From a virus (lineage: Duplodnaviria; Caudoviricetes), in IMG/VR virus record IMGVR_UViG_3300033566_000030, positions 1-57,218 of that record: 57,218 bases of DNA. One strand, given 5' to 3'. Positions 6,428 to 31,258 of this stretch are shown here, piece by piece. The translations under genes and the position numbers were made by a program. Numbering within the stretch: position 1 is the stretch's first letter; the number at the start of each line of letters is the position of its first letter. The notes beneath the pieces were generated by a model. That model was not told the DNA's origin, ran no database searches, and saw only the letters and a list, made by a program, of their open reading frames with translations.

Positions 6428-6712
6428 ATGAAAACAATTAAGACTGTGCTTATTACACCTAAGTATGTTTCCTTGATTCCTTCTGTGGAGGATATGGAAG
6501 AGAAGGTGTTCTATATATCTGAGCATAATGAGGTAGCTTCTCATCTATGTTTCTGCGGCTGCGGTCATGAGGTAGTTACCCCATTGGATTCGGATCAGTG
6601 GATCTTGTCTGGGGGTAAGGAGATTATCTCTCTATCACCGTCGATCGGTAATTATAATCTTGAATGCAAATCTCATTACGTCATTCGATTTAATAAAGCC
6701 AACTTTATATGA
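6428..6712 (+). CDS. DUF6527-like Cys/His protein
   Basis: HLCFCGCG...TPL...SLSPSIGN...CKSHYVIR. Confidence 0.7.
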   Translation: MKTIKTVLITPKYVSLIPSVEDMEEKVFYISEHNEVASHLCFCGCGHEVVTPLDSDQWILSGGKEIISLSPSIGNYNLECKSHYVIRFNKANFI

Positions 6713-7167
6713 AAAAGAAGAAACTAAAACTTATAGAGTTTCTCAACATGGGTTCTTTCCCGGGACTCATTCTCTTATCCGTTGGTCATACTTATGATGA
6801 GCTCATCAAACAGCTACAGAAAAATTATAAAACCGGTAACTGGGAAAAGGATCCTAGTGGGCTTGAACTTTGGCTCTTTGGTATCCAGGGCGATGAGAGG
6901 CTTCTTAATAATGGAAAGTTCTTCGGTCTCCGTCGTGAACTTACTCATCCGAAGTTTGGTACCAGGTACTTGTATTATATCATACTTCAGGAATTTGACT
7001 TCTCTGATGAGCACATGGTAATACTCGCTCATGAGTGCCTGCATATCTGCCAGTTCCATCTTCCGGATATACTGGATAGGAATAAGGAGCATGAGGCGGA
7101 GGCATACCTTCATACTCACATCATGAGGCAATGTCTGGAGAAAATGCGTAAACCTAAAATAAAATAA
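6709..7167 (+). CDS. HExxH metallopeptidase-like protein
   Basis: LAHECLHI followed by HEAEAY. Confidence 0.6.
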   Translation: MKKKKLKLIEFLNMGSFPGLILLSVGHTYDELIKQLQKNYKTGNWEKDPSGLELWLFGIQGDERLLNNGKFFGLRRELTHPKFGTRYLYYIILQEFDFSDEHMVILAHECLHICQFHLPDILDRNKEHEAEAYLHTHIMRQCLEKMRKPKIK

Positions 7168-7169
7168 AC

Positions 7170-7400
7170 ATGAAAACAAAAACACAGTTCAGAAAATGGT
7201 TCGATCTAATGTGGGGAAACCATTACATCCAGGTATTCATTTTGGACCTATTGTTTATGGGACTAATTACTTATCAGCTAGATGAGTTTGAAGAACCTTG
7301 GACTATTGCGGTAGCTTACGGTATTCCCGGATTAGCTTGCCTAGTAATAATCTACAAGGGCTTTTATAAGTTCTGGCAAGACATGAAGGATAAGTTATGA
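7170..7400 (+). CDS. Small membrane protein
   Basis: 76 aa, two hydrophobic segments. Confidence 0.7.
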   Translation: MKTKTQFRKWFDLMWGNHYIQVFILDLLFMGLITYQLDEFEEPWTIAVAYGIPGLACLVIIYKGFYKFWQDMKDKL

Positions 7401-7816
7401 TAGTAGCGCTTATATTATGGATCCTTGCCGCAATGTGCAATGCCATAATGGATACTCTGGTACATCACTTTGATACAAGTATCTTCAAAAATAAGGACCG
7501 TATGTTCTGGGATCCGGCGATAAGTTGGCGGAATAAATATGTGGATCGCGATAGTACAAAGAGTATCCGAAAACTTTGGATCTTTGATTACCCTGTAGCT
7601 TTTACAGATGCTTGGCATTTCTTTAAGAGTCTGATGATTGTATGTTGTTGCGTGACAATATTATCTCTGCACTAGTCAGCTGTTAAAAATCCTTACCTTT
7701 TAACTACGCAAATAGGTTGCGTAAAGGTAACAATAGGGCTTTTTATATTATTCGGCATTCTATGGAATACTGTATTCTCTGTATGTTATAACAGGATCTT
7801 TAGAAAAAAGAAATAA
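7397..7816 (+). CDS. Membrane protein with an in-frame TAG at 7673-7675
   Basis: The frame stays open for 46 more codons (SAVKNPYLL...IGLFILFGILWNTVFSVCYNRIFRKKK*), adding a TM helix and basic tail. Confidence 0.55.
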
Positions 7817-7818
7817 TA

Positions 7819-7850
7819 TTTGCACAGTTCAAAAACTCTTATTACATTTG
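7819..7850 (+). promoter_or_regulatory. Bacteroidota housekeeping-type promoter for tRNA array 1
   Basis: TTTG (7819-7822), 20 nt, TACATTTG (7843-7850); ATG follows 4 nt later. Confidence 0.8.
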
Positions 7851-7854
7851 TCCT

Positions 7855-7926
7855 ATGAAAATGCTATTACTCTTTAGTTATTGCTTGTGGTCGTCGAAAG
7901 ATGGCTCAGGGAAGACTATTGAATAA
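7855..7926 (+). CDS. Attenuator leader peptide 1 (MKMLLLFSYCLWSSKDGSGKTIE)
   Basis: 23 codons; codons 4-14 are only L/F/S/Y/C/W; contains CTCAGGGA complementary to the terminator 5' arm. Confidence 0.8.
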   Translation: MKMLLLFSYCLWSSKDGSGKTIE

Positions 7927-7960
7927 TGTTTTGTTACGCAACAGAAAACATTTGAACAAG

Positions 7961-7993
7961 AATCCCTGAGTACGCCAACTCAGGGATTTTTTT
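7961..7993 (+). terminator. Attenuator terminator ahead of tRNA array 1
   Basis: AATCCCTGAGT-ACGCCA-ACTCAGGGATT with a 7-T run, ending 4 nt before tRNA-Phe. Confidence 0.85.
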
Positions 7994-7997
7994 ATTT

Positions 7998-8069
7998 GGG
8001 ACTATAGCTCAGCAGGTAGAGCACGGGATTGAAGATCCCGCCGCACTGGTTCGATTCCGGTTAGTCTCA
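7998..8069 (+). tRNA. tRNA-Phe(GAA)
   Basis: Cloverleaf; CGGGA-TTGAAGA-TCCCG. Confidence 0.92.
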
Positions 8070-8075
8070 CAGAAT

Positions 8076-8160
8076 GGGAGTACTGCTAAGAAGGTGGATT
8101 AGCACTGGTCTGTAACACCAGTACAAGGAAACACAAATGGTTCGAATCCATTTACTCTCA
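8076..8160 (+). tRNA. tRNA-Tyr(GTA)
   Basis: CTGGT-CTGTAAC-ACCAG; long variable region. Confidence 0.88.
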
Positions 8161-8165
8161 CATAA

Positions 8166-8247
8166 GGAAGATAGCGTGCGATGGTGCACATCCGGTCTTG
8201 AACACCGGCGCGGTCCTATGGACAGGGTTCGACTCCTATATCTTCCG
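8166..8247 (+). tRNA. tRNA-Ser(TGA)
   Basis: CCGGT-CTTGAAC-ACCGG; variable arm; G73. Confidence 0.88.
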
Positions 8248-8258
8248 CAAAATTAAAT

Positions 8259-8330
8259 ACGAGTATGGTGCAGTGGCTAGCACAGCAGTCTCCAAAACTG
8301 TTGACGGAAGTTCGAATCTTTCTACTCGTG
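8259..8330 (+). tRNA. tRNA-Trp(CCA)
   Basis: GCAGT-CTCCAAA-ACTGT. Confidence 0.92.
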
Positions 8331-8335
8331 CAAAT

Positions 8336-8407
8336 GGAACTATGGATGAGTGGTTTAGTCCCCGGTCTGCAAAACTGGTTACGTTTGTTCGAATCAAACT
8401 AGTTCCT
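8336..8407 (+). tRNA. tRNA-Cys(GCA)
   Basis: CCGGT-CTGCAAA-ACTGG; U73. Confidence 0.92.
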
Positions 8408-8411
8408 CTAT

Positions 8412-8495
8412 AGAAGATAAACCTACTCGGGTAGGAGCAGCCTGCTAAGCTGTCTGGTCGCTATTGTGACTGTGGATCAGGGCCACTATCTTCTG
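8412..8495 (+). tRNA. tRNA-Ser(GCT), atypical T-loop
   Basis: GCAGC-CTGCTAA-GCTGT; variable arm; T-loop reads ATCAGGG. Confidence 0.75.
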
Positions 8496-8500
8496 CAAAT

Positions 8501-8574
8501 ACCTGTGTGGGCAAACGGCAAAGTCGCTTGACTTAGGATCAAGAGTTTTGAGGGTTCGACTCCCTCCATGGGTA
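8501..8574 (+). tRNA. tRNA-Leu(TAG), short variable loop
   Basis: CTTGA-CTTAGGA-TCAAG. Confidence 0.88.
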
Positions 8575-8654
8575 CAATAAAATGTTTAAACTATTTTGGT
8601 TTAAACTTCTGTTCTTTGAAATATTCTGATATCTTTGTGGTTCAATAAACCAAC

Positions 8655-9168
8655 ATGATAATAGATCCAAATTTTCAGACTCCGTTACCGGTAGTTGACC
8701 ACATGATCAGTATGATTCCAATAGGTGCAAAAACTGTACTAGAACCTTCTCCCGGATTAGGAAATATTGTCTCCAGACTTGGAGATTATGAAGTAACTGC
8801 TGCAGATGATTTTCTTTCTCCTGGATAGGAGTAAGCGCTATGATGCTGTTGTTATGAATCCACCATTCTCGGATAAGAGTGGGTTCATGGATAATGCGCC
8901 GGCTGAACTTAAGGAGAACAAGGGAATGCGTCTGGGTTATTACTTTTTACTGGAGTGCATGAAGATGAGTGATAATGTGATTGCCCTCATGCCATGGTTT
9001 ACATTAACAGATAGTGATCGTAGACTGCAGGCTTTAGAAGCTTATGGTATCAAATCTGTTACTTCTTTACCACGTAAGACCTTTGAATATGCACGCATTC
9101 AAACATGCATCATTCACTTACAAAAGGGTTACAAAGGTATCAGTATGTTTGACGTATTCAAATACTAA
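8655..9168 (+). pseudogene. N6-adenine DNA methyltransferase split by a +1 frameshift near 8810
   Basis: Frame from ATG 8655 has motif I (VLEPSPGLG); the 8806 frame has motif IV (VMNPPF); removing one T from 8810-8813 joins them. Confidence 0.8.
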
Positions 9169-9172
9169 CTTA

Positions 9173-9233
9173 TCTGTCCGAAGGTTATGAGGATGCCTCC
9201 TCCTGTAGGTTCATAAAGTAGACAGAAACAGGA
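9173..9233 (+). ncRNA. Small structured RNA with a potential pseudoknot
   Basis: Nested stems TCTGTC/GACAGA and TTATGA/TCATAA; loop TCCTGT complementary to 3' ACAGGA. Confidence 0.35.
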
Positions 9234-9236
9234 AAT

Positions 9237-9315
9237 GCTCCAGTGGCGTAACGGTAGCCGCGCAGGACTTAAAATCCTGTCTTAATTGGTGCGGGTTCAA
9301 GTCCCGCCTGGAGTA
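9237..9315 (+). tRNA. tRNA-Leu(TAA)
   Basis: CAGGA-CTTAAAA-TCCTG. Confidence 0.9.
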
Positions 9316-9346
9316 CTACTTTCAAGATTTTTTTGTATATTAGAAG

Positions 9347-9562
9347 ATGGGAGATTTTCTAAAATGGTTTTTTACTACACACATGCATCCTACGAGGATC
9401 ATAGTATGGAGAGAACTTTTCATGAATCTCATTACACTGATATTCGTTGTAACCTATGCCTATCTTGAGATTCGAGGTGCTGATGCAGCTACGATTACTA
9501 ATCTAAGAATGATCTTACTCTTCGTTCTTGGGTATTATTTCAACAGAAACTCGAAGCACTAA
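9347..9562 (+). CDS. Small two-TM membrane protein
   Basis: 71 aa; TATATTAG element at 9336-9343; ends VLGYYF. Confidence 0.65.
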   Translation: MGDFLKWFFTTHMHPTRIIVWRELFMNLITLIFVVTYAYLEIRGADAATITNLRMILLFVLGYYFNRNSKH

Positions 9563-9614
9563 GAAAAATATTTGGCTGATTTTCACAAAGTTATACTAAC
9601 ATACAAAAGATTTT

Positions 9615-9645
9615 TTTGGTAGCTCAAAAACTTACAGTACATTTG
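9615..9645 (+). promoter_or_regulatory. Bacteroidota housekeeping-type promoter for tRNA array 2
   Basis: TTTG (9615-9618), 19 nt, TACATTTG (9638-9645); ATG follows 5 nt later. Confidence 0.8.
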
Positions 9646-9650
9646 CCACG

Positions 9651-9761
9651 ATGAAACAAGTACAACATATAGCAAATCAAGTGGCGAAAGCCATGATTAC
9701 GCGCAGAGACGGGGTTGAACCGTTATGCCCGGAGGCTTTATATGCAGTATTTGAATTATAA
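9651..9761 (+). CDS. Attenuator leader peptide 2 (MKQVQHIANQVAKAMITRRDGVEPLCPEALYAVFEL)
   Basis: 36 codons; the first 24 contain all 14 amino acids of array 2 and none of L/F/S/Y/C/W; CGGAGGCTTT is complementary to the terminator 5' arm. Confidence 0.8.
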   Translation: MKQVQHIANQVAKAMITRRDGVEPLCPEALYAVFEL

Positions 9762-9789
9762 CACGAAAGTCATAACTCAAAATATAGCG

Positions 9790-9823
9790 AAAAGCCTCTG
9801 ATAATCTCAGGGGCTTTTTTTTT
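9790..9823 (+). terminator. Attenuator terminator ahead of tRNA array 2
   Basis: AAAAGCCTCTGA-TAATC-TCAGGGGCTTTT with a 9-T run. Confidence 0.85.
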
Positions 9824-9837
9824 GTTCTTTAAAATAA

Positions 9838-9910
9838 CGAGATATGGCGAAGTCGGTATCGCGCCTGGTTTGGGACCAGGAGAACGTAGGTTCGAACCCT
9901 GCTATCTCGA
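9838..9910 (+). tRNA. tRNA-Pro(TGG)
   Basis: CCTGG-TTTGGGA-CCAGG. Confidence 0.92.
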
Positions 9911-9935
9911 CATTAATAAATCGTTCTTTAATAAT

Positions 9936-10010
9936 GGGCTGTTGGCGGAGATAGGCGAGCGCACTTCCTTTGCAAGGAAGAACACAGGGGTTCAAGTCCC
10001 TTACGGTCCA
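9936..10010 (+). tRNA. tRNA-Ala(TGC)
   Basis: CTTCC-TTTGCAA-GGAAG; G3-U70 pair present. Confidence 0.9.
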
Positions 10011-10108
10011 CATGTAAAAAAAATTCTCTCTGGGTGACCTGGCACATACCAAGCCTTAAGCGCCGAACCTGGGACCGGAATGCAGTAGCACATAGGAGAG
10101 ACACATTA

Positions 10109-10148
10109 GCAGGAATAGCTCATTCGGTAGAGCGTCAGCCTTCCAAGC
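10109..10148 (+). pseudogene. 5' fragment of tRNA-Gly(TCC), truncated just after the anticodon loop
   Basis: GCAGGAA-TA-GCTC..GAGC-G-TCAGC-CTTCCAA-GC, then unrelated sequence. Confidence 0.8.
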
Positions 10149-10192
10149 AAAAATAAGTTTGGAAGGACAAAAAATAGATGTATCTTTGTTGT

Positions 10193-10612
10193 ATGAATAA
10201 GATATGTTGTACGTGTAAAGAAAATCTTCCTGCTGATAAGTTCAGCATTAGGAAGGATAGAAAAAAACCTTATTTACAGAGCTCTTGTAAAGAGTGTCAT
10301 AGTAAATATAGAAAAGAGCATTATGAAAACAATAGGGTAAAATACATTAAGAAAGCCAGTGTAAATAGACGTTCTTTGAGAGATTGGCTTACTGAGTACA
10401 AAAAAGGATTGTCTTGTGAACAATGTTCTGAAGATAGATTTTGGGTTTTAGAATTTCATCATACAGATCCTTCAAAAAAGGAAGGAGAGATTTCTTTTCT
10501 TGCCAAAAAAGGTAACAAAAAGAAAATCGAAGAAGAGATTAAAAAATGCATAGTTCTATGTGCGAATTGTCATAGAGATTTGCACTATAAACAAAAAGCA
10601 GGAAACGCATAA
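10193..10612 (+). CDS. HNH endonuclease with N-terminal Zn-finger
   Basis: CxxC motifs, LEFHH, LCANCH; promoter TTTG 10158 / TATCTTTG 10181-10188 favours ATG 10193. Confidence 0.85.
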   Translation: MNKICCTCKENLPADKFSIRKDRKKPYLQSSCKECHSKYRKEHYENNRVKYIKKASVNRRSLRDWLTEYKKGLSCEQCSEDRFWVLEFHHTDPSKKEGEISFLAKKGNKKKIEEEIKKCIVLCANCHRDLHYKQKAGNA

Positions 10613-10674
10613 CAGGTGGTGCACCAGACTTCCAATCTGGACTAGAGCGAGTTCGAGCCTCGCTTCCTGCTCCA
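10598..10674 (+). tRNA. tRNA-Gly(TCC), overlapping the HNH stop codon
   Basis: GCAGGAA/TTCCTGC-T-CCA; CCAGA-CTTCCAA-TCTGG. Confidence 0.88.
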
Positions 10675-10846
10675 AACGGTAGACCTCCGCGAAAGGTACG
10701 CCGGGAAAAATATGAAGATCTCAAGGTCTGGATGATAGAAAATCTGGATTGAATGAAGAAGGGTTAAAGGCCCTGACCCTACACTATCGAGGGTTATGTT
10801 TGCAAAAGCTTCGTTGTCTTGAAGTAGTATTTTTCCAAAGCAATTT

Positions 10847-10921
10847 AGCTTGTCGGTCCAGTCTGGAGTGGACGCCGCACTGTCACTGCGGAGATCAGGG
10901 GTTCAAATCCCCTACGAGCTG
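10847..10921 (+). tRNA. tRNA-Asp(GTC)
   Basis: CCGCA-CTGTCAC-TGCGG. Confidence 0.92.
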
Positions 10922-10924
10922 CAA

Positions 10925-10999
10925 GAGGAATGGATATAGGTTCGAATCCTATTGCATCAGCGAAAGCCGATGTATCGTTTAACGGTAAGACAGTTCCTT
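10925..10999 (+). ncRNA. Circularly permuted tRNA mimic (YrlA/Y-RNA-like topology)
   Basis: Order: stem GAGGAAT, T-arm ATAGG-TTCGAAT-CCTAT, acceptor stem closed by GC-GAAA-GC, D-arm GTTT-AACGGTA-AGAC, then GTTCCTT. Confidence 0.75.
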
Positions 11000-11006
11000 A
11001 TTTTAT

Positions 11007-11078
11007 TACTCCTTAGCTCAGCGGTAGAGCAGTGCCCTGTTAAGGCAAAGGTCGTAGGTTCAATCCCTCCAGGAGTAG
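11007..11078 (+). tRNA. tRNA-Asn(GTT)
   Basis: TGCC-CTGTTAA-GGCA. Confidence 0.88.
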
Positions 11079-11087
11079 CAGAAATAT

Positions 11088-11159
11088 TCACACGTAGCTC
11101 AACGGTGGAGCACCACACTGATAATGTGGCGGATGTCGGTTCGAATCCAGCCGTGTGAA
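11088..11159 (+). tRNA. tRNA-Ile(GAT)
   Basis: CCACA-CTGATAA-TGTGG. Confidence 0.9.
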
Positions 11160-11165
11160 CATAAT

Positions 11166-11240
11166 ACCAGAATAGCTCAGTTGGTTCAGAGCAGATCCCT
11201 TACAAGGATAAGGTCGGGAGTTCGAATCTCTCTTTTGGTA
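11166..11240 (+). tRNA. tRNA-Val(TAC)
   Basis: ATCC-CTTACAA-GGAT. Confidence 0.9.
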
Positions 11241-11325
11241 CATAAACGATGATAATTTAAACTTGTAATGTTTACACTAAAGAGATACAAAGCAATAAAG
11301 GTTAGGATAAGATCCTAATCACTAT

Positions 11326-11396
11326 TCCTTTGTAGCTCAATGGTAGAGCTTGCGGCTTTTAACCGTAAGATCCAAGTTCGATTCTTGGCAGGGGAA
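11326..11396 (+). tRNA. tRNA-Lys(TTT)
   Basis: TGCGG-CTTTTAA-CCGTA. Confidence 0.92.
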
Positions 11397-11410
11397 CTTT
11401 AAAAAGATTT

Positions 11411-11484
11411 CTCTCCGTAGCTTAATTGGATGAAGCAGCTGCCTTCTAAGCAGCAGATTACAAGTTCGAGTCTTGTCGGAGAGA
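11411..11484 (+). tRNA. tRNA-Arg(TCT)
   Basis: GCTGC-CTTCTAA-GCAGC. Confidence 0.92.
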
Positions 11485-11487
11485 CAA

Positions 11488-11559
11488 GCGCCCTTAGCTC
11501 AAAGGCGGAGCAGGACACTCATAATGTCAAGGGTGCAGGTTCGATTCCGGCAGGGCGCA
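11488..11559 (+). tRNA. tRNA(CAT), probably Ile2 (lysidine type)
   Basis: GACA-CTCATAA-TGTC; acceptor GCGCCCT with C4-G69 and C5-G68 as in Ile2 tRNAs. Confidence 0.8.
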
Positions 11560-11571
11560 CAAGAAATATAA

Positions 11572-11645
11572 TGCGGGGTAGAGGAGCGGCCGTCCTCGTG
11601 AGACTCATAACCTCAACATCGCTGGTTCGAATCCAGCTCCCGCAA
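11572..11645 (+). tRNA. tRNA-Met(CAT)
   Basis: TGCGGGG acceptor resembles initiator tRNAs, but the anticodon stem lacks three consecutive G-C pairs. Confidence 0.85.
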
Positions 11646-11715
11646 CAAAAGGATTAATGAGTGCCTGATAAAAAGCAGAGAATATAATACCAGGTTCTCT
11701 GCGGTCCTTTTAAAT

Positions 11716-11787
11716 GTTCCTGTCTTCTAATGGTTAGGATAGAGCCCTTTCACGGCACTGATACGAGTTCGATCCTCGTCGGGAATA
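11716..11787 (+). tRNA. tRNA-Glu(TTC)
   Basis: GCC-CTTTCAC-GGC. Confidence 0.88.
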
Positions 11788-11792
11788 CATAA

Positions 11793-11865
11793 GCCGAAAT
11801 AGCTCAACGGTAGAGCTCCTGTTTTGTAAACAGGAGGTTTGTAGGTTCGAATCCTATTTTCGGCT
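11793..11865 (+). tRNA. tRNA-Thr(TGT)
   Basis: CCTGT-TTTGTAA-ACAGG. Confidence 0.92.
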
Positions 11866-11880
11866 CTTTTAATAAGATGT

Positions 11881-11955
11881 GGGGTCTTTAGTTTAAGGGT
11901 AGAACACTGGCTTGTGATGCCGGATATCTGAGTTCGAGTCTCAGTTGGCCTCCCA
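11881..11955 (+). tRNA. tRNA-His(GTG)
   Basis: CTGGC-TTGTGAT-GCCGG; G-1/C73 and encoded CCA; weak acceptor stem. Confidence 0.82.
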
Positions 11956-11965
11956 TCTTATAAAT

Positions 11966-12037
11966 AGTTTCCTCGTCCAACGGATAGGACATTAGACTAC
12001 GGATCTAAAAATAAGCGTTCGAGTCGCTTGGAGACTA
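11966..12037 (+). tRNA. tRNA-Arg(ACG)
   Basis: TTAGA-CTACGGA-TCTAA. Confidence 0.9.
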
Positions 12038-12042
12038 CTTAT

Positions 12043-12113
12043 TAGCCTATAGTTTAATGGCAGAACGGTTGGTTTTGATCCAACAAATCGTGGTTCGAGT
12101 CCGCGTCGGCTAA
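12043..12113 (+). tRNA. tRNA-Gln(TTG)
   Basis: GTTGG-TTTTGAT-CCAAC. Confidence 0.9.
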
Positions 12114-12178
12114 CTTTCTCTCCTCAATGTTTGGTTCTTTCGCATCTTTTGTTTATATTAGTATAAACAGACTACTTC

Positions 12179-14011
12179 ATGGATTCAATAAACTTTACAG
12201 CATGGGTAGCACAACAAAGAATCTTACAAGCTTCTGATATTGTTGCTGCAGATGACCTGTTAATCATAGGTAAAAAAATAAGTAAAAATCGTAGTGGAAG
12301 AGGTTATGAAGAGTTCGTTATAAGTGTAGCGGATTTTTTCTCTTCAGTTGGAAACGGATATACTTTTGTACAAGATGAAGGTATAACTCTTCCACAAAGA
12401 ACAACAATGAATTTTGTTGGTACTGGAGTAACTACTTCTGATATTGGAGGTAAAACGACAATTACTATCGCAGCTGGTGGTCATGCTATAGAAGATGAAG
12501 GTGTTGCTTTAATCAGCCGTCCTATCATGAATTTCGTGGGTGCTGGTGTTGCTGTTACTGATACCGGTGGTAAAACTTTGGTAACTATAGCAGGAGCTCA
12601 TATCATAGAAGATGAAGGGGTTCCTTTAGGAACACAAAGAACTTCTTTGAACTTTACCGGTAATATGGTTTCTGTATTCGATAATGCGGGTAAGACGGAG
12701 GTTAATATTAATCTTTCTATCATGAGAAAGGTTATTTATGTTGATGGTATTAATGGTAACAATGCTTTAGCAGCTGCTAATCTATACGATCAAAAATACG
12801 CGTTTCTTACTTATAACGCAGCTCATGCTGCAGCTGCACAAAACGATACCATTATTCTTTTACCCGGATCTGCTTATACTTGGAACGGTGGTCAGATATT
12901 CAGAAACGGTGGAGCCATTGAAATCATGAAAGGTGCGACTCTTACTTGGATATGGACTCCTGGTGCAATTACTGGAAATACAGGAGACTCTTTCACTATT
13001 TATGGTGAAGGTACTTTTAGTATGAACAATACCATTGATGCTACAGATCCAGCAGGTAATAAAACTTTCAACATCTTTGTTGATACATTCAATATTACTG
13101 CAGGTAATGGTATTTGTTTCGCTCGTGGTTTCATGAAGTTCAACATCGATGTTAATGTTTGTAACTTTAATACGGTTAGTGCTGCAGGTTTCTTTACAGC
13201 AGAAGCGCCAATCTTGAAATTCAAGTGTAATAAAGCAAACTGGGATACTCCATCATTCCCAGGATTTGTATTTAGTGCTCTTTCTGCATCAACAGATGAA
13301 TCTACTTTTGATATCGAAGTGATGAATATCACACGCGGTGGTTTATTCCAGGTACAACTTGGAACAAGTCAAAATTACAAGATTCGTGTAAAAGGTAAGA
13401 TCAACAGTACTTCAAGTGCACCGGCAGCTGTTGGTGTAATTACAACATCTCAATCACCTGCAGGAACCATAAACTCAGAAGCTGATATCGAATGTACAGG
13501 AAGTTCTTTCCCTTATTACATTACAGGTGGTAGTCGTGTGAGTATCCAAGGAACTGTAAAAAGCAATCCTCCTGCTCAGAACCAATCAGCAATCTTAGTA
13601 GATAATGCTTCTGCTGAGGTAATCGTCCGAAATGCAAACGTATTTGGGAACAGACTTGCTGGTGGAGCTATTTGGGCTGTAAGAGGCCTTGTAATGATTG
13701 AAGAATCAACGGTTACGAACGAGGCTTCTGTATCAGGTACAAGTTATGCAGTACAAGTTGGTCCAAATGGAATCAGTTCAGCAGGTTTAATAAAAACTCT
13801 TCTGAAAAGCGTAGTTCTTTTATCAGATCCTGTAACAGGAAATGCTGGAACAGCTCCTACAATATATGTGGATCAGCCTTCCGGAAATCAAGTGATTCAA
13901 TATTTAGGAACAGTTACAGCAAACGGTATAGAATCGGCTAACGTTACAGAAGAATTAGGATTCTACACTTTCTGGCAAGGTGTGACTGTATCAAGAATAC
14001 CGAAAGTATAA
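12179..14011 (+). CDS. Tail fibre / receptor-binding protein
   Basis: Three tandem ~39-aa repeats (IEDEGV..R..MNFVG.GV...D.GGKT..TI), then IYVDG and a beta-helix-like region. Confidence 0.65.
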   Translation: MDSINFTAWVAQQRILQASDIVAADDLLIIGKKISKNRSGRGYEEFVISVADFFSSVGNGYTFVQDEGITLPQRTTMNFVGTGVTTSDIGGKTTITIAAGGHAIEDEGVALISRPIMNFVGAGVAVTDTGGKTLVTIAGAHIIEDEGVPLGTQRTSLNFTGNMVSVFDNAGKTEVNINLSIMRKVIYVDGINGNNALAAANLYDQKYAFLTYNAAHAAAAQNDTIILLPGSAYTWNGGQIFRNGGAIEIMKGATLTWIWTPGAITGNTGDSFTIYGEGTFSMNNTIDATDPAGNKTFNIFVDTFNITAGNGICFARGFMKFNIDVNVCNFNTVSAAGFFTAEAPILKFKCNKANWDTPSFPGFVFSALSASTDESTFDIEVMNITRGGLFQVQLGTSQNYKIRVKGKINSTSSAPAAVGVITTSQSPAGTINSEADIECTGSSFPYYITGGSRVSIQGTVKSNPPAQNQSAILVDNASAEVIVRNANVFGNRLAGGAIWAVRGLVMIEESTVTNEASVSGTSYAVQVGPNGISSAGLIKTLLKSVVLLSDPVTGNAGTAPTIYVDQPSGNQVIQYLGTVTANGIESANVTEELGFYTFWQGVTVSRIPKV

Positions 14012-23102: not shown

Positions 23103-25334
23103 ATGGCTAAAGGAGACTTTATAACAGTACCCACATGGGACAACGGTGTTTGGACAGAGCGTTCTTTCAATACGAGAGACGACTTCAAGCTCTTTGTGTT
23201 ACTCCTATTCAAGGAACCAGGCCAGTACGAATTCGACGAAACTTCATTTTTGTTTAATCAACAAGCTCGTTTGTTCAATGAACGTGATGTAAAAGATGAT
23301 GGTAATGGATGGTACTGTGATGCTCCATTCAAGAGTAAGGACTTCTTAAAGTATTGGGATGACGAGAAAGCAAAGTGTCGAAATGGTGTAATCTTCATGA
23401 AAGGAGATCAGACCTGGTATCTCCCGCGCGACTATTATATGTGGATTAACTTTATGAAGATCTACAATAAAGAAGTTAAGAAGTTTGAGTTTGCCTCAGT
23501 TCGAGATGTTCAGTATCACATGGCCCTGTATGAACTACTTGCCGAACTTCATTATATGCATGCTGCAGTATTGAAGAAACGTCAGATTGCATCATCGTAT
23601 TTCCACTGTGCAAAAATCATCAATCTTCTATGGTTTGAAGAAGGTGCTGTCATGAAGATGGGCGCATCTCTTAAAGATTATGTGAATATCAAAGGATCCT
23701 GGAAGTTCCTAAACGAATATCGTTCTTTCTTAAATCAACATACTGCATGGTACCGTCCATTCGATCCAAAAGGTGAAGGATTATGGCAACAGCAAATTGA
23801 AGAGAAAGATGGAAATGGTAGATCTTCTTTGGTCGGATTAAAGGGAACTCTTTCTATGACGACCTTTGAACGAGATCCTGCTGCAGGTGTAGGTGGACCC
23901 TGTACATTATTCTTTCATGAGGAAGCGGGTATTGCTCCGAAGATGGATACTACAATGGAATTCTTAATTCCTGCCTTACAGTCCGGTGATATAACTACCG
24001 GTTTATTTGTTGCTGCAGGATCAGTGGGTGATCTTGATCAGTGTGAGCCTCTGAAGCGATTAATCTATAAACCAAGACAAAATAATATCTATCCGGTTAC
24101 CAGTAACCTTCTGGATGATAAAGGTACAATTGGCGAAACAGGTCTCTTCTTACCCGAACAGTGGTCGATGCCCCCGTATATTGATAAGTTCGGAAACTCA
24201 GATATCATAGCTGCTAATGCAGCGCTTGATGCTCAACGTGAGATATGGAAGAGAGATTTGGAACCTGAACAGTTTCAGTTCCGTATATCGCAGCGCCCAA
24301 GAAACATCGCGGAAGCCTTTGCCTATAAGACAGTATCTGTCTTCCCACCTCATCTGGTAGCTGCTCAAGAGAAACGTATCGAGGACAAAGAATATCCTAT
24401 AGAATTCATAGATCTTGAAAGAGATGCTATGGGTAAAATCATAGCTAAGAAAAGCAATAGGATTCCCATCCGGGAGTTTCCTATTAGCAAGAATGCACCA
24501 GACAAACGCGGGGTTCTTGAAGTATTTGAACGACCCAATCCTGATGCAGAATTCGGTACTTGCTTGGCCTCTGTCGATCCAGTGAATGCTGGTAAAACTA
24601 CGACGAGTGTCTCATTGTGTTCGATCTATGTTTATAGAAAGCCGGTTGAAGTAATTAAGAAGTTTCCAGATGGGACGATTAAGGAAACGTATATTGAGGC
24701 AGGTCGAATTGTTGCTTGCTGGACAGGAAGATTCGATGATCCGGAAGATACCCACAGACAATTGGCGATGATTCTTGAGTGGTATAAAGCAAGATGTATT
24801 GTGGAGAATAACGTTACGGCATTTATCCAATACATGATGTCAGAGAAACTACAAAAGTATCTGGTACCTAAAAATGAGATCATCTTCTTAAAAGAAGCTT
24901 CAAGTAACAAGAGCGTTTACCAAGATTATGGTTGGCGAAATACTGGTCGACTTTTCCATGATCATCTCCTAGATTACCTCATAAAGTTTATGATGGAAGT
25001 TACAGATACCATAACCAAGGATGATGGTGAGATTGTAAAAAGAATATACGGTGTTGAAAGGATCCCTGATATAATGGTCATCAAAGAGATGAAAGACTAC
25101 CAGGAAGGAAAGAACGTGGATAGGCTTATTTCCCTGAGTGCATTAATTGCATTCGCTAAAGTGCAACAAACTCGGATGGGTAACAGTAAAAGAGTTGAAG
25201 AAGAGCAAACTGACTTGCAAAAGTCCTCTAAAATGCGTACCTTAGAACACAGTCCCTTCCGTCACATGGGTGGTAACGGAATGAGTTCTCCGGGAAAAGG
25301 AAAACCGAGAAGCCCATTTAAAAACTATAGATAA
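23103..25334 (+). CDS. terL: Terminase large subunit
   Basis: Walker A-like LKKRQIASS, Walker B FFHEEAG, nuclease SVDP, VENN, NVDR; directly upstream of the portal. Confidence 0.9.
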   Translation: MAKGDFITVPTWDNGVWTERSFNTRDDFKLFVLLLFKEPGQYEFDETSFLFNQQARLFNERDVKDDGNGWYCDAPFKSKDFLKYWDDEKAKCRNGVIFMKGDQTWYLPRDYYMWINFMKIYNKEVKKFEFASVRDVQYHMALYELLAELHYMHAAVLKKRQIASSYFHCAKIINLLWFEEGAVMKMGASLKDYVNIKGSWKFLNEYRSFLNQHTAWYRPFDPKGEGLWQQQIEEKDGNGRSSLVGLKGTLSMTTFERDPAAGVGGPCTLFFHEEAGIAPKMDTTMEFLIPALQSGDITTGLFVAAGSVGDLDQCEPLKRLIYKPRQNNIYPVTSNLLDDKGTIGETGLFLPEQWSMPPYIDKFGNSDIIAANAALDAQREIWKRDLEPEQFQFRISQRPRNIAEAFAYKTVSVFPPHLVAAQEKRIEDKEYPIEFIDLERDAMGKIIAKKSNRIPIREFPISKNAPDKRGVLEVFERPNPDAEFGTCLASVDPVNAGKTTTSVSLCSIYVYRKPVEVIKKFPDGTIKETYIEAGRIVACWTGRFDDPEDTHRQLAMILEWYKARCIVENNVTAFIQYMMSEKLQKYLVPKNEIIFLKEASSNKSVYQDYGWRNTGRLFHDHLLDYLIKFMMEVTDTITKDDGEIVKRIYGVERIPDIMVIKEMKDYQEGKNVDRLISLSALIAFAKVQQTRMGNSKRVEEEQTDLQKSSKMRTLEHSPFRHMGGNGMSSPGKGKPRSPFKNYR

Positions 25335-25335
25335 G

Positions 25336-28110
25336 ATGCAAGTACTAAATGCAATGGATCTGAAAGCCGGTAAAAAGGCTGAAAGAAATAAGATGGGTGG
25401 AATCACTCAACCTATCCAGTTCATACCTCGTGAGGAGAAAGATGAGCAATGGGCCGCTTGGAACATGGATTGGTTGGAGTGGAATGGTATGAAACAACTT
25501 GCTCGAAATGCTCGTCGTTTACTTAAAAACTACAAGCTTGCCAAAGGTGTTATCGACAAAACAGATTATATCGTCGAGGAAAGTAACGAGATGGCTGATT
25601 TAGTGGAAACACTGATATCAGAAGACTCTAGTGCGTTAGAACTTAAGTTCTATCCTATTATCCCAAATATCATAAATGTACTTACCACAGAGTTTGCTAA
25701 ACGTAATACAACAATAAGCTTTCGTTCTGTAGATGAATTTGCTTATAACGAGATGCTTGAGCAGAAAAGAGAAGCTATCCAAAAAGTTCTCTTCAAAAAC
25801 GCTGAACAAAAGATCTTTGCAAAGATGATCGAAATGGGTGCAGACCCTAATGATCCTGAAGTGCAAGCACAACTGCAGCAACAAACTGATCCGGAAGCTT
25901 TGAAAACTCTTCCTGAGATTGAGCAATTCTTCAGTAAGAGTTACCGTAGTTTAGCTGAACAATGGGCAATGCATCAAACTGAAGTGGATCGTGATCGTTT
26001 TGGTCTGGATGAGCTTGAGGAAAGAGGATTCAGAGACAGTCTTATTACAGACAGAGCCTTCTTCCATTTTGCTATGGGTGAAGATGATTACAATGTTGAA
26101 CTTTGGAACCCGGTAACAACATTCTACCATAAGTCTCCGGATGTACGTTATATTTCTCAAGGAAACTGGGTTGGTAAAACTGAGATGTACACCATTGCGG
26201 ATGTTATCGACAAATATGGTTACCTGATGACTACTGAACAAATGGAGTCTCTGGAAGCCATCTACCCAGTAAAAGCTGCAGGATACGCTATCGATGGTCA
26301 ACAAAACGATGGTTCTTTCTATGACGCAACCAGATCTCATGCATGGAATACAAATGCACCAGGTGTAACTATGCGACAATTCACTTCTGTTTATGATGGT
26401 TATCATGCCGGCGGTGATATCATAGATCGTATCATGAGTGAATCAGAAGACTATGGAGAACTTGATTCTACATTCTTTCTACGCGTAACAACTGCGTACT
26501 GGAAGTCTCAACGTAAAGTCGGCCTTTTAACCGATATGAAAGAAGACGGTACGGTTGATACTGATATTGTTGATGAAACCTTTGTTGTAACCAACAAACC
26601 TTTATATAATACCACTCTGTTCAAAAATAAGGATAGAAGAAATCTTTTATTCGGTCAGCATGTTGAATGGGTTTATATCAACCACGTGTATGGTGGAATA
26701 AAAATAGGAAACAATCGTCCAACCATGTACGGTATGGAGAACCCGGATGGATTTGATCCGATCTACATAGGAATCGATCAAAATAAAATCGGACCATTAA
26801 AGTTCCAGTTTAAAGGAGACAATACAATCTATGGTTGTAAACTTCCTGTAGAAGGTTGTGTATTCTCAGATCGTAATACTAAATCTACCGGTTTTGTTGA
26901 TCTTACAAAAGCATTCCAGATAGGATACAATATTGTCAATAATCAGATTGCGGATATCCTGGTCGATGAGTTAGGTACCGTAATTCTGTTTGACCAGAAC
27001 ATGTTCCCTAAACATTCTCTTAACGAAGACTGGGGTAAGGATCCATACGCCAATGCCTTTGTAGCCATGAAGAACTTTCAGATGCTACCGATCGATACTT
27101 CGATTGCTAATACTGAGACTCCTCTTAATTTTAACCAGTTTCATACCCTGAACATGGAACAGACAGCTCGACTAATGTCTCGTGTTCAATTGGCCAACCA
27201 TTTCAAACAACAGTTGTATGAAGCAATGGGATTTACTCCACAACGTCTTGGTCAACAAATCGGACAGACGGATACAGCTAAAGGTGTAGAACAATCTGTA
27301 GCAGGATCTTTTGCACAAACTGAAGGGTACTTTATTCAGTACGCCGATAACCTTTTACCTCGAGTACATCAGATGAGAACTGATGTTGCGCAGTATTACC
27401 AGTCAACAAAACCTTCTGTACGATTGCAATATGCTGTTTCAGCAGATGAAAGAGTTAATTTTGAAATCAATGGTACAGAGCTTCTCTTAGCCGATATCAA
27501 CATTAAAGCGACAACTAAGGCTAACCACCGTGCAGTCATTGAAGAGATCAAAGCTATGGCTAAAGGAAATAATACTTCCGGAGCTACCATCTATGATCTT
27601 GGTAATGTTATTAAGGCCAAATCCATGGCTGAGGTTACTCATATCCTTAAAGCCGCAGAGACTAAGAATCAGAAGCAAATTGCTGATGAGCGTGCCCATG
27701 AAGAGAAAATGGCTCAGATCGAATCTGACCAACGTACTCAGGAAGCTCAAATGAAGTTGGATAGAGAGACTCTGGAAAAAGAAAAAGATCGCAGATTGGA
27801 GCTTCTTGTAGCTCAAATTAAAGCTGCAGGCTATGGTGCTATGCAAGATATTGATCAGAACCAGCAAAGTGATTTCCAAGATGTTCTTGGGCAGATCCAG
27901 CAAACTGATCAGTTCAACCAGGTTATGAACTTCGATAGACAGAAAGAAGGCAACAAGGTAAACGCTAACAGAGAGAAGATGAATCTTGAATATGCTAAGC
28001 TGCAGACAGCTCGTGAATTGAAGGAAAAAGACCTACAAGTCGCAAGAGAGAACCAGACAAAAGCAGAACTTGATGCAAAGAGAAAAGCGCGTAAGAAGGA
28101 TACCAAATAG
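25336..28110 (+). CDS. Portal protein
   Basis: 924 aa after TerL; YPIIPNIIN, GFTPQRLG, coiled-coil C-terminus; crAss-like order. Confidence 0.85.
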   Translation: MQVLNAMDLKAGKKAERNKMGGITQPIQFIPREEKDEQWAAWNMDWLEWNGMKQLARNARRLLKNYKLAKGVIDKTDYIVEESNEMADLVETLISEDSSALELKFYPIIPNIINVLTTEFAKRNTTISFRSVDEFAYNEMLEQKREAIQKVLFKNAEQKIFAKMIEMGADPNDPEVQAQLQQQTDPEALKTLPEIEQFFSKSYRSLAEQWAMHQTEVDRDRFGLDELEERGFRDSLITDRAFFHFAMGEDDYNVELWNPVTTFYHKSPDVRYISQGNWVGKTEMYTIADVIDKYGYLMTTEQMESLEAIYPVKAAGYAIDGQQNDGSFYDATRSHAWNTNAPGVTMRQFTSVYDGYHAGGDIIDRIMSESEDYGELDSTFFLRVTTAYWKSQRKVGLLTDMKEDGTVDTDIVDETFVVTNKPLYNTTLFKNKDRRNLLFGQHVEWVYINHVYGGIKIGNNRPTMYGMENPDGFDPIYIGIDQNKIGPLKFQFKGDNTIYGCKLPVEGCVFSDRNTKSTGFVDLTKAFQIGYNIVNNQIADILVDELGTVILFDQNMFPKHSLNEDWGKDPYANAFVAMKNFQMLPIDTSIANTETPLNFNQFHTLNMEQTARLMSRVQLANHFKQQLYEAMGFTPQRLGQQIGQTDTAKGVEQSVAGSFAQTEGYFIQYADNLLPRVHQMRTDVAQYYQSTKPSVRLQYAVSADERVNFEINGTELLLADINIKATTKANHRAVIEEIKAMAKGNNTSGATIYDLGNVIKAKSMAEVTHILKAAETKNQKQIADERAHEEKMAQIESDQRTQEAQMKLDRETLEKEKDRRLELLVAQIKAAGYGAMQDIDQNQQSDFQDVLGQIQQTDQFNQVMNFDRQKEGNKVNANREKMNLEYAKLQTARELKEKDLQVARENQTKAELDAKRKARKKDTK

Positions 28111-29629: not shown

Positions 29630-31258
29630 ATGAGCACTCCAGTACTTAACAACGGTATGTACCTGCGTGACACGAACTACAAGGCTAGTTCTCACGTTGA
29701 TTCGTATCACTTAGTGAACATGTTAAAGAATCCAGAGCCAATGGACTTCGGTCCGGTTGAGATGTGGGCTAATATGCAAAAGGTAGAAATGCCTTTGTAT
29801 CAGCTTTCGTCTTTTGGAGGAAAGAATGTGATCGAAGTGACCGGACCAAAAGGTGAATGGAAATGGCAAACGCCAGTGGCGCAGAACCTTCCTTTCATCG
29901 TTGAAGATATCGAATCTTCAAACACTCTAAAAGGACAAGACGGTATGTCTTTCAAAATCAAAGTAAGCCGTCGTGCTTTTGGTCATGGTGACGTGATCAC
30001 TTACGATAAGCTGAATGGTTGTGAGATGCACATTACAGATGAAGACATCCTTCCAGTAAGCGATGGTTACGTCTATACCGTTGCGTTAGTGAATAACGAT
30101 AACTACAAGTTCTTGGATAACAAGTTCTTGATGAATGGTACACCGTTATTCCGTAAAACATCTGCTCGTGGTGAGTACGGTGAAAGATTCTCTGATATCA
30201 GCATCGAGTCTGGTTTCCGTGAGTTCTATAACTTCGTAGGTGGAGCTGAGGCTCACGTTCATTATTCAGTTAGCTCACGCGCTGACATGATGATCAAAGG
30301 AGGTATGAACGTTGACGGAACAATCCCGGTTACTGAAATCTGGAGAAGCTTCGATCAGAAAAACATGGATCCTTCAATCACCTCTTTGGACTCAATGTTC
30401 AAGAAAATGGGTGGTTCATACATGAAAAAAGCATTAGCAAACGGAACTCTTTCTAAGACGTTCTTGACTGCAATGGAAGCTGCACATTTAACTAAGATCT
30501 CTCAGGATATCGAAGGTTACTTAATGTGGGGGCATGGTGGACGTCTGAAACAAGATGGACCGGATGATATCCGTATGTCTGTTGGTTTATGGAAACAGTT
30601 GGACAACTCGTTCAAACGTATCTACAATAAATCAGGTTTCAGTCTTGATTTGTTCCGTTCAGAACTTCACAACTTCTACGCAGGTAAAGTTGAGTTCCAG
30701 GGACCAGATCCAAAACGCCAATTGATCGTACAAACCGGTATCGGTGGTATGCGTTTGGTGAGTGAGGCAATCGCTGCTAAAGCTGCAGGTTCTGGATTAA
30801 TCATCCAAGCTGCTTCAAATGCAGGTATCGGTGCAATCACTGGAACTAACGCGATGGATTTGAACTTCGGTTTTGCTTACACAAGCTTTACGATTCCTTT
30901 CCTTGCAAACGTGAAATTCGTTATCAACCCAGCGTTCGATAACGTTCACACAAGTAACATCGAGAACCCGATGATCGACGGTAATCCATTGTCATCTTAC
31001 AGCTTCGTGATCTTCGACATCACTGACAGCGGTAACGATAACATCTTCTTATTGAAGAAAAAATGGGATAACGAACTTCGTTGGTGGTATCAAAACGGTA
31101 CTATGGACTACATGGGAAGAAACGGTTTCGCGTCTTCTGGTCAGTTCAACGGTTACCGTGTGTATATGACTCAAACAATGCCAGCTATCTGGGTGAAAGA
31201 TCCTACGAAGGTGTTGAAGATCGTGATGAGAAATCCGATCACAGGAGGAAGCTTCTAA
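29630..31258 (+). CDS. Major capsid protein
   Basis: 542 aa; highly expressed codon style, strong terminator after, crAss-like order, IWVKDPT C-terminal motif. Confidence 0.8.
   Translation: MSTPVLNNGMYLRDTNYKASSHVDSYHLVNMLKNPEPMDFGPVEMWANMQKVEMPLYQLSSFGGKNVIEVTGPKGEWKWQTPVAQNLPFIVEDIESSNTLKGQDGMSFKIKVSRRAFGHGDVITYDKLNGCEMHITDEDILPVSDGYVYTVALVNNDNYKFLDNKFLMNGTPLFRKTSARGEYGERFSDISIESGFREFYNFVGGAEAHVHYSVSSRADMMIKGGMNVDGTIPVTEIWRSFDQKNMDPSITSLDSMFKKMGGSYMKKALANGTLSKTFLTAMEAAHLTKISQDIEGYLMWGHGGRLKQDGPDDIRMSVGLWKQLDNSFKRIYNKSGFSLDLFRSELHNFYAGKVEFQGPDPKRQLIVQTGIGGMRLVSEAIAAKAAGSGLIIQAASNAGIGAITGTNAMDLNFGFAYTSFTIPFLANVKFVINPAFDNVHTSNIENPMIDGNPLSSYSFVIFDITDSGNDNIFLLKKKWDNELRWWYQNGTMDYMGRNGFASSGQFNGYRVYMTQTMPAIWVKDPTKVLKIVMRNPITGGSF

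Follow-up and report, generated by a model that had tools for sequence, protein, structure and literature searches.

A probable ribosome-mediated attenuator in front of a tRNA gene array of a crAss-like phage fragment

Two blocks of tRNA genes and their common lead-in

The subject of this study is a short segment (positions 9651-9823) preceding the second of two blocks of transfer RNA (tRNA) genes in virus record IMGVR_UViG_3300033566_000030. The 57-kb stretch of DNA held in this record, referred to below as the window, is a fragment of a tailed, crAss-like phage and was judged to be approximately half complete. In a preliminary description, prepared from the nucleotide sequence, the segment had been read as a transcription attenuator whose short open reading frame (ORF) samples the tRNAs encoded downstream. 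We analyzed this segment, together with its counterpart in front of the first block, by computation throughout (sequence inspection, RNA folding and statistics).

Using ARAGORN, 22 tRNA genes were detected in the window, and relaxed thresholds added tRNA-Ser(UGA) (8166-8248), which coincides with a weak Rfam match to the tRNA-Sec model (8166-8246), and tRNA-Ser(GCU) (8412-8496). The resulting 24 genes form two blocks, which together serve all 20 amino acids and whose amino-acid sets do not overlap. Array 1 (7998-9316, i.e. 7998-8575 plus 9237-9316; + strand) contains genes for Phe, Tyr, Ser(UGA), Trp, Cys, Ser(GCU), Leu(UAG) and Leu(UAA), with the ORFs of a split methyltransferase-like gene between the last two. 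Array 2 (9838-12114; + strand) is comprised of 16 genes, in the order Pro, Ala, Gly, Asp, Asn, Ile, Val, Lys, Arg(UCU), CAU, CAU, Glu, Thr, His, Arg(ACG) and Gln, representing 14 amino acids and 15 distinct anticodons (CAU occurs twice); a truncated 5′ half of tRNA-Gly and an HNH endonuclease gene lie between the Ala and Gly genes. The acceptor stem of one of the two CAU tRNAs resembles that of tRNA-Ile2, which makes this gene a candidate tRNA-Ile2. The first block includes all readers of codons starting with U, as well as those of the Leu CUN and Ser AGY codons, and the second block includes the remainder; this partition is not arbitrary.

Both blocks share the same lead-in: a promoter, a short ORF, a strong intrinsic terminator and the first tRNA gene. 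Promoter 2 (9615-9645; + strand) is of the Bacteroidota sigma-A type (TTTG, 19 nt, TAnnTTTG), this motif being the Bacteroidota promoter consensus. It ends 5 nt before the ATG codon of the following ORF, and the mRNA of leader 2 is therefore probably leaderless, or nearly so. Promoter 1 (7819-7850; + strand), of the same type, is followed after 4 nt by the start codon (ATG) of leader 1. The general pattern (TTTG, 19-20 nt, TAnnTTTG) occurs four times in the window, versus 1.5 matches expected, and the three matches on the + strand precede leader 1, leader 2 and the HNH gene.

Leader ORF 2 (9651-9761; + strand) has 36 codons and a stop codon at 9759-9761; its codons 1-24 (9651-9722; + strand) constitute the putative sensor part. 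Leader ORF 1 (7855-7926; + strand) has 23 codons, of which codons 4-14 (7864-7896) are the corresponding sensor codons. Terminator 2 (9790-9823; + strand) consists of a stem of 12-13 bp (9790-9818; five G-C pairs) with a 5-nt loop and a run of nine T residues (9815-9823), which ends 15 nt before tRNA-Pro; the 5′ and 3′ arms of the stem are segments 3 and 4, respectively, of the putative attenuator. Terminator 1 (7958-7993; + strand), with a stem of 13-14 bp and seven T residues, ends 4 nt before tRNA-Phe. The gap between the terminator and the first tRNA was scored as 8-22 nt in both units. No promoter fits between these two features, and every array transcript must therefore cross the terminator.

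Leader codons, antiterminator pairing and stall folding

We compared the codons of the two leaders with the tRNA genes that follow them. Codons 1-24 of leader 2 specify only Met, Lys, Gln, Val, His, Ile, Ala, Asn, Thr, Arg, Asp, Gly, Glu and Pro, i.e. all 14 amino acids of array 2 and none outside this set. The block 1 amino acids Leu, Cys, Tyr and Phe are used from codon 25 onwards only. The sensor contains both classes of Arg codons (CGC, AGA) and both classes of Ile codons (ATA, ATT). Under standard wobble rules, each of the 15 anticodon species of array 2 (16 genes) has a cognate codon among codons 1-24 and, conversely, 21 of the 23 codons at positions 2-24 have a cognate tRNA downstream. 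The claims of the preliminary description concerning the sampled amino acids and tRNAs, the Arg and Ile codon classes, and the late appearance of Leu, Cys, Tyr and Phe are all borne out by these counts. In leader 1, codons 4-14 specify only Leu, Phe, Ser, Tyr, Cys and Trp, and all eight tRNA species of array 1 are covered. Each of the two leaders matches its own block only.

The match between leader and array composition is far beyond chance. When peptides were generated by independent, identically distributed (iid) draws from the proteome composition of the loci, 24 in-set codons covering 14/14 amino acids were obtained with P = 3e-4, and the leader 1 values (a run of 11 covering 6/6) were reached in 0/20000 draws. 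Real short ORFs taken from all six frames of the same loci, a sample in which the nucleotide composition is kept, gave equal values in 1/2026 cases for leader 2 and in 1/4224 cases for leader 1, the single case being in each instance the leader itself. The signal is also specific for the reading frame: the run of leader 2 is 23 codons long in the frame of the ORF, against 5 and 6 in the two alternative frames of that strand and 5, 5 and 12 in the three of the opposite strand, while that of leader 1 is 11 in frame versus 5, 3, 2, 2 and 4 in the others. The permutation test of leader against array composition that had been suggested for this locus was thus carried out in several forms (these short-ORF and iid tests, and the leader-array pairing described below) and was strongly positive.

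The second component of the proposed switch is located in the tails of the leader ORFs. Segment 2 of leader 2 (9730-9739; + strand), corresponding to codons 27-30, is the putative 5′ strand of an antiterminator. As had been proposed, it is complementary to 9791-9800 (10 pairs, including one G-U), and this pairing is the predicted fold once the 3′ arm of the terminator is omitted. Its counterpart in leader 1 (7903-7913; + strand), corresponding to codons 17-20, pairs with the 5′ arm of terminator 1. The free energy of the leader 2 duplex (-14.7 kcal/mol) was reached by 0/1000 random segments of the same locus and by 3/1000 shuffled sequences, and that of the leader 1 duplex (-17.0 kcal/mol) by 1/1000 and 0/1000, respectively. 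When terminator arms were tested against the leaders of 14 units, the own leader ranked first for both leaders of the window.

Stalling of a ribosome was modelled by folding the leader with the 3′ arm of the terminator omitted (the state prior to its transcription) and with the RNA masked as far as 12 nt beyond the A site. For leader 2, the antiterminator was formed with stalls at codons 2-23 (9 of the 11 arm nucleotides paired), was reduced at codon 24 (6/11) and was lost from codon 25. The last antiterminator-permissive stall is therefore at codon 23-24, where the sensor codons end. For leader 1, it was formed with stalls at codons 2-13, was weaker at codon 14 and was lost from codon 17, the sensor run being codons 4-14. 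In full-length folds, segment 2 is paired with the sensor codons (segment 1) and the terminator is formed.

The minimum free energy structures of leader 2 also contain a hairpin with a GAAA loop (9675-9698, core 9682-9693; + strand), located within the sensor codons, and a GAAA-capped hairpin is present in leader 1 (7890-7905), so that the preliminary description was correct in noting such hairpins in both leaders. The 3′ side of the leader 2 hairpin can also pair with 9734-9739 (a 1:2 pairing), and the hairpin may act as a pause or anti-antiterminator element. GAAA-capped hairpins are not shared by the leaders of other phages.

Recurrence in other phage genomes

Using the HNH gene as an anchor, we fetched 80 viral loci (designated by L numbers), and the 48 that contain five or more tRNA genes were scanned by a fixed script. 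The rule considered tRNA genes preceded by a gap of 90 nt or more, required a terminator no further than 70 nt upstream of the gene, and took as the leader the longest ATG-initiated ORF ending within 130 nt upstream of that terminator. The scan yielded 16 units. Nine of these had P ≤ 0.01 by run and coverage, namely the two units of the window, L009, L010, L011, unit B of L012, L018, L019 and L085. L054 lay at P = 0.0103, L037 had P = 0.13 by run and coverage (0.007 by coverage), and unit A of L012 was weak (P = 0.037). Four units were not significant: L014 (P = 0.53), L032 with its longest ORF (0.24), L036 (0.67) and L038 (0.19). An internal start in L032 gives a better match; this start was chosen by eye.

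In unit B of L012, leader codons 2-15 are mostly Lys, Val and His, and the array encodes Lys, Lys, (Arg), Val, His and His. The leader of L009 has 22 consecutive in-set codons followed by an array of 13 tRNAs, and that of L018 has 21, counted from the start codon, followed by 12 tRNAs. The leaders of L054 and L037/L085 sample all 20 amino acids, in 30 and 32 codons, respectively, and precede arrays of 23-26 tRNAs; the L037 unit has a sigma-70-like promoter. The stall-permissive window ends near the end of the sampled part in these loci as well (at codon 15 in unit B of L012, 31-32 in L037 and 29-30 in L054). In L009, L010 and L012, the Ile codons of the sensor are all ATA, and the arrays contain several CAU tRNAs labelled as Met by ARAGORN. 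Some of these are probably tRNA-Ile2 (lysidine-modified), in which case the leader-array matches are better than counted.

Across the phage lineages, the sequence of the leader peptide is not conserved, but only its composition relative to the array. The own array was the best-scoring set for eight of the nine leaders with partial sets, and when leaders and arrays were paired at random the true total was reached in 1/200000 draws, possibly by the identity permutation itself. Likewise, the own leader was the most stable partner of the terminator arm in 8 of 14 units, and random leader-terminator pairings reached the true total in 0/200000 draws. Sensor content and antiterminator alike therefore vary together with the elements downstream of them.

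Besides recurring in unrelated, uncultured phages, units of this kind are also present in two cultured phages of different families, and the idea is therefore directly testable. Cellulophaga phage phi4:1 (NC_021788; locus L119) has three leader-terminator units, whose leaders match (i) Pro-Glu-Gln-His-Leu-Leu-Arg, (ii) Ala-Lys-Ile-Gly-Met-Asp-Thr-Val-Arg-Met and (iii) Tyr-Ser-Ser-Asn-Trp-Phe. Units 1 and 3 were equalled in 0/20000 iid draws. Unit 2 fails the ATG rule (P = 0.82) and matches only if read in frame from the end of the promoter (P = 1e-4). Of three corresponding leaders in the Cellulophaga phage Calle_1, the scan rule retrieved one (P = 6.5e-4); the other two were recognized by eye, and one of these lacks a clear terminator. 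The tRNAs of both phages are split in a similar way to those of the window, into three blocks (Tyr/Ser/Asn/Trp/Phe; Pro/Glu/Gln/His/Leu/Arg; the rest). With respect to the annotation of phi4:1, gp075 (7887-8006) has a TTG start placed inside a promoter-like repeat and is probably a leader ORF with another start, gp076 (10015-10116) overlaps a tRNA-Ser(UGA) gene (10010-10093) found at a relaxed threshold, and the 22-codon leader at 6963-7031 is unannotated.

A different arrangement was observed in the crAss-like loci L036 (5926-6047), L038 (6579-6685) and L097-L102. Here, a promoter and an AT-rich hairpin of 14-16 pairs with a T-run precede tRNA-Gln, the first gene of an array of approximately 20 tRNAs; the hairpin ends about 7-9 nt before this gene, and no ORF that could credibly serve as a leader is present. 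The hairpin is shared by the loci, whose differences within it are compensatory, and may be a different control or processing element. Another stretch of about 500 nt, located between two tRNA genes of the distant relatives L003 (10590-11150) and L004 (10585-11105), is non-coding and contains conserved blocks; it may represent a structured RNA or an intron-like element.

Searches for closer relatives of the window were made by several routes. The protein encoded at 12179-14011 gave no close relative among viral contigs, and neither did a 28-mer of tRNA-Pro. A search with the promoter-plus-start pattern retrieved two unrelated loci, both devoid of tRNA genes, and the gp4-like protein and its alignment retrieved only five distant loci, with 0-3 tRNAs and another layout. 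The HNH alignment gave 27 loci among metagenome contigs, none of them close, and a megablast search of 7500-12500 against phages gave a single 56-nt match. Relatives found in the runs X1-X3 span leader 1 with few changes, and one contig of X3 diverges from the window after 9708, with the segment 2 motif still present in its loose end.

The other genes of the window include those for the large terminase (23103-25334), the portal protein (25336-28110) and the major head protein (29630-31258). A gp4-like protein of the DUF4157 type (6709-7167) is arranged as in Bacteroides phage crAss001, and the location of the HNH endonuclease gene between tRNA-Gly sequences also follows the layout of that phage (tRNA-Gly, HNH, tRNA-Gly). 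In the window, the truncated 5′ half of tRNA-Gly(UCC) (10109-10146; acceptor, D arm and anticodon loop) stops where the HNH gene begins. A separate promoter match (10158-10188) precedes the latter, which probably starts with the ATG at 10193 and whose end is overlapped by a complete tRNA-Gly(UCC) (10598-10674). This looks like the scar of a homing-endonuclease insertion rather than a spliceable intron, because the anticodon stems differ. The DNA methyltransferase-like gene within block 1 is divided over two frames that overlap (8655-8828 and 8806-9168), an indication of either a frameshift or a pseudogene.

Proposed mechanism, its alternatives and related systems

Four computed observations, namely the anatomy of the unit, the composition match, the specific complementarity between ORF tail and terminator, and the recurrence of such units in other phages, argue for the attenuator proposed in the preliminary description: the promoter, ORF, sensor, antiterminator and terminator are all in place, and the controlled genes follow immediately. 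It is therefore probable that the segment is a functional ribosome-mediated (leader-peptide) transcription attenuator of the tRNA array. This would imply that the leader ORF is translated and that transcription and translation are coupled. Since the leader uses just the amino acids of the tRNAs that follow, the phage probably makes those tRNAs only when they are in short supply; the direction of control would thus be induction on shortage, and codon-usage demand, decay or cleavage of host tRNAs, or starvation are candidate triggers.

According to this model, the host RNA polymerase would start at the promoter (9615-9645) and a ribosome would begin at once on the leader ORF (9651-9761). If the tRNAs for codons 1-24 are available and charged, the ribosome would follow the polymerase into the tail of the ORF (codons 25-36), where it would cover or re-bury segment 2 (9730-9739); the terminator (9790-9823) would then form and transcription would stop 15 nt before tRNA-Pro. 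A stall at any of the 24 sensor codons would leave segment 2 free to pair with 9791-9800, and the resulting antiterminator would block the terminator and allow the polymerase to read into the 16 tRNA genes, from whose transcript RNase P would free the individual tRNAs. Leader 1 (7855-7926) would play an equal role for the other eight tRNAs. As the sensor contains one to three codons per array tRNA, it would operate as an OR gate over exactly those tRNAs that it controls (negative feedback or demand control).

A number of observations weigh against this model. With regard to the sensor, 2 of the 23 codons of leader 2 (GCC and GTT) require four-way wobble, and the run statistic was picked after the pattern had been seen. 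With regard to the switch, the 1:2 pairing of leader 2 comprises 6 bp only, and the antiterminator is formed even when leader 2 is folded with no ribosome on it. The stop codon, moreover, is 20 nt downstream of segment 2, and a ribosome on that codon would leave the segment uncovered; termination would therefore need close coupling or 1:2 refolding. Five of the 11 units tested failed to show a significant antiterminator duplex (L009, borderline; L012 unit A; L032 with the internal start; L054; phi4:1 unit 2). The stall boundary determined automatically (at least 0.6 of maximal pairing; outliers L018, L054 and phi4:1 unit 2) correlated with the end of the sensor run with r = 0.92, no better than did ORF length (r = 0.94), and we therefore do not use it as independent support.

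Further points of this kind come from the survey of relatives and other phages. As no close relative of the window was found, leader 2 itself has no covariation alignment, and a search for RNA runs containing the window sequence found none. The element is missing in crAss001, where the promoter stands directly before tRNA-Gln. Phage T5 has no such units; small ORFs lie between its tRNAs, and a Cys-rich ORF before tRNA-Cys resembles a zinc ribbon, but there is no terminator. In the Vibrio phage phi-Grn1, the Acinetobacter phage AbTZA1 and the Sinorhizobium phage Phosso there were no units, or no ORF according to the rule. Among the metagenome loci none of the eight units was significant, and five of them represent another motif, in which a promoter is followed by a long AT-rich hairpin, its T-run and tRNA-Gln, a credible ORF being absent.

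We weighed three other explanations. In the first, the ORF is translated and senses the same tRNAs, while the output is decay or processing of the leader RNA, or the peptide itself is the product. Such an output would suit a leader 2 whose default, ribosome-free fold already contains the antiterminator and for which the evidence of translation is compositional. We nevertheless regard it as improbable, given the strong canonical terminators directly before the first tRNA and the end of the permissive stall window where the sensor codons end; a functional peptide is further opposed by the divergence of its sequence between phage lineages, in which only composition relative to the array persists. 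Even less likely, in our opinion, is an arrangement in which an incidental, untranslated ORF lies next to a hairpin that terminates transcription constitutively but leakily, acts as an insulator, or serves in RNA processing or stability. The crAss-like arrays of L036, L038 and L097-L102, which are preceded by hairpins without leaders, provide a precedent for this, but an incidental ORF leaves unexplained both the frame-specific match between leader codons and tRNAs in many independent loci and the complementarity of the ORF tail to the terminator arm of its own unit. Finally, a leader that binds tRNA directly, with no translation, in the manner of T-boxes (which control tRNA-related genes by terminator/antiterminator switching) is highly improbable, since the signal is confined to one reading frame, one RNA could not hold specifiers for 15 tRNAs, and no T-box or other riboswitch was matched by Rfam in 7000-13000 at E values up to 1.

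Apart from tRNAs, the Rfam search of 7000-13000 gave only weak, sub-threshold and unrelated matches. One of these, Phe_leader (RF01859; 28.3 bits versus a gathering threshold of 55, E = 0.13), covers only the terminator region (9732-9823) and was rejected.

The purpose of phage tRNA genes is a matter of debate, the main proposals being compensation of codon usage and rescue of translation after degradation of host tRNAs or their cleavage by defence systems. If the attenuator model is correct, phages measure the supply of tRNAs and express their arrays on demand, and the genome itself tells which tRNAs the phage treats as one functional block. Classical attenuation would be extended to RNA genes, and to the Bacteroidota and their phages, and the element would provide synthetic biology with a compact natural part, a programmable multi-tRNA sensor. 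We tentatively extend this to a broader possibility, that sampler leaders are a widespread, modular form of control in which each array is switched on only when its own tRNAs are limiting, as an inducible answer to the loss of host tRNAs. Were this so, that loss might be due to tRNA-cleaving defence nucleases, host shut-off or a gap in codon usage, and the arrays would not be supplements expressed constitutively. A leader with codons for all 20 amino acids would act as a general sensor of translation health, and selection would also act on the division of the tRNAs into blocks that are sensed separately.

A full-text literature search, whose scope left out most subscription journals and all supplements, revealed no attenuator before tRNA genes, no sampler leader mirroring an array and no case in a phage. 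Passages of two reviews (PMC4810235, PMC10136315) describe no leader peptides or attenuators before phage tRNA genes.

T-box riboswitches also use a terminator/antiterminator switch that responds to the state of specific tRNAs and controls tRNA-related genes; they differ in reading a single specifier codon through direct binding of uncharged tRNA, independently of translation. Attenuators based on upstream ORFs that respond to translation stress include the erm and cat leaders, the leaders of ARE-ABCF genes and the mycobacterial whiB7 leader. In these, as proposed here, a stall in the leader ORF switches on the downstream genes and can be a response to tRNA loss, but they are not known to be codon-matched to downstream tRNA genes and control resistance or stress genes. 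One form of such loss, tRNA cleavage by VapC5, is the subject of PMC10287673.

The phage element is most readily compared with leader-peptide attenuators that sense the supply of charged tRNA. The attenuator of Escherichia coli pheST, with the pheM leader, controls phenylalanyl-tRNA synthetase. It thus also governs a part of the translation machinery by charged-tRNA supply, but it senses one amino acid and controls a cellular protein-coding operon, not the tRNAs themselves.

The best known attenuators of this class are the trp, his, leu, thr, ilv and pheA leaders of Proteobacteria. They share with the phage element (i) a promoter-proximal short ORF, (ii) regulatory codons, (iii) mutually exclusive antiterminator and terminator hairpins and, according to the model proposed here, (iv) a stall that frees segment 2, and the ilv leaders likewise sense several amino acids. 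Unlike these amino-acid-operon leaders, the phage element would control tRNA genes instead of enzymes, samples 6-20 amino acids by one to three codons each in place of a run of codons for one, and is found in phages; its promoter is of the Bacteroidota type, its start is nearly leaderless, and the product of its operon would feed back directly on the sensor. The element would follow the four-segment logic of classical attenuation. What appears to be new is the location of an attenuator before tRNA genes and its sampler leader; the class to which it belongs, ribosome-mediated attenuation, is textbook knowledge.
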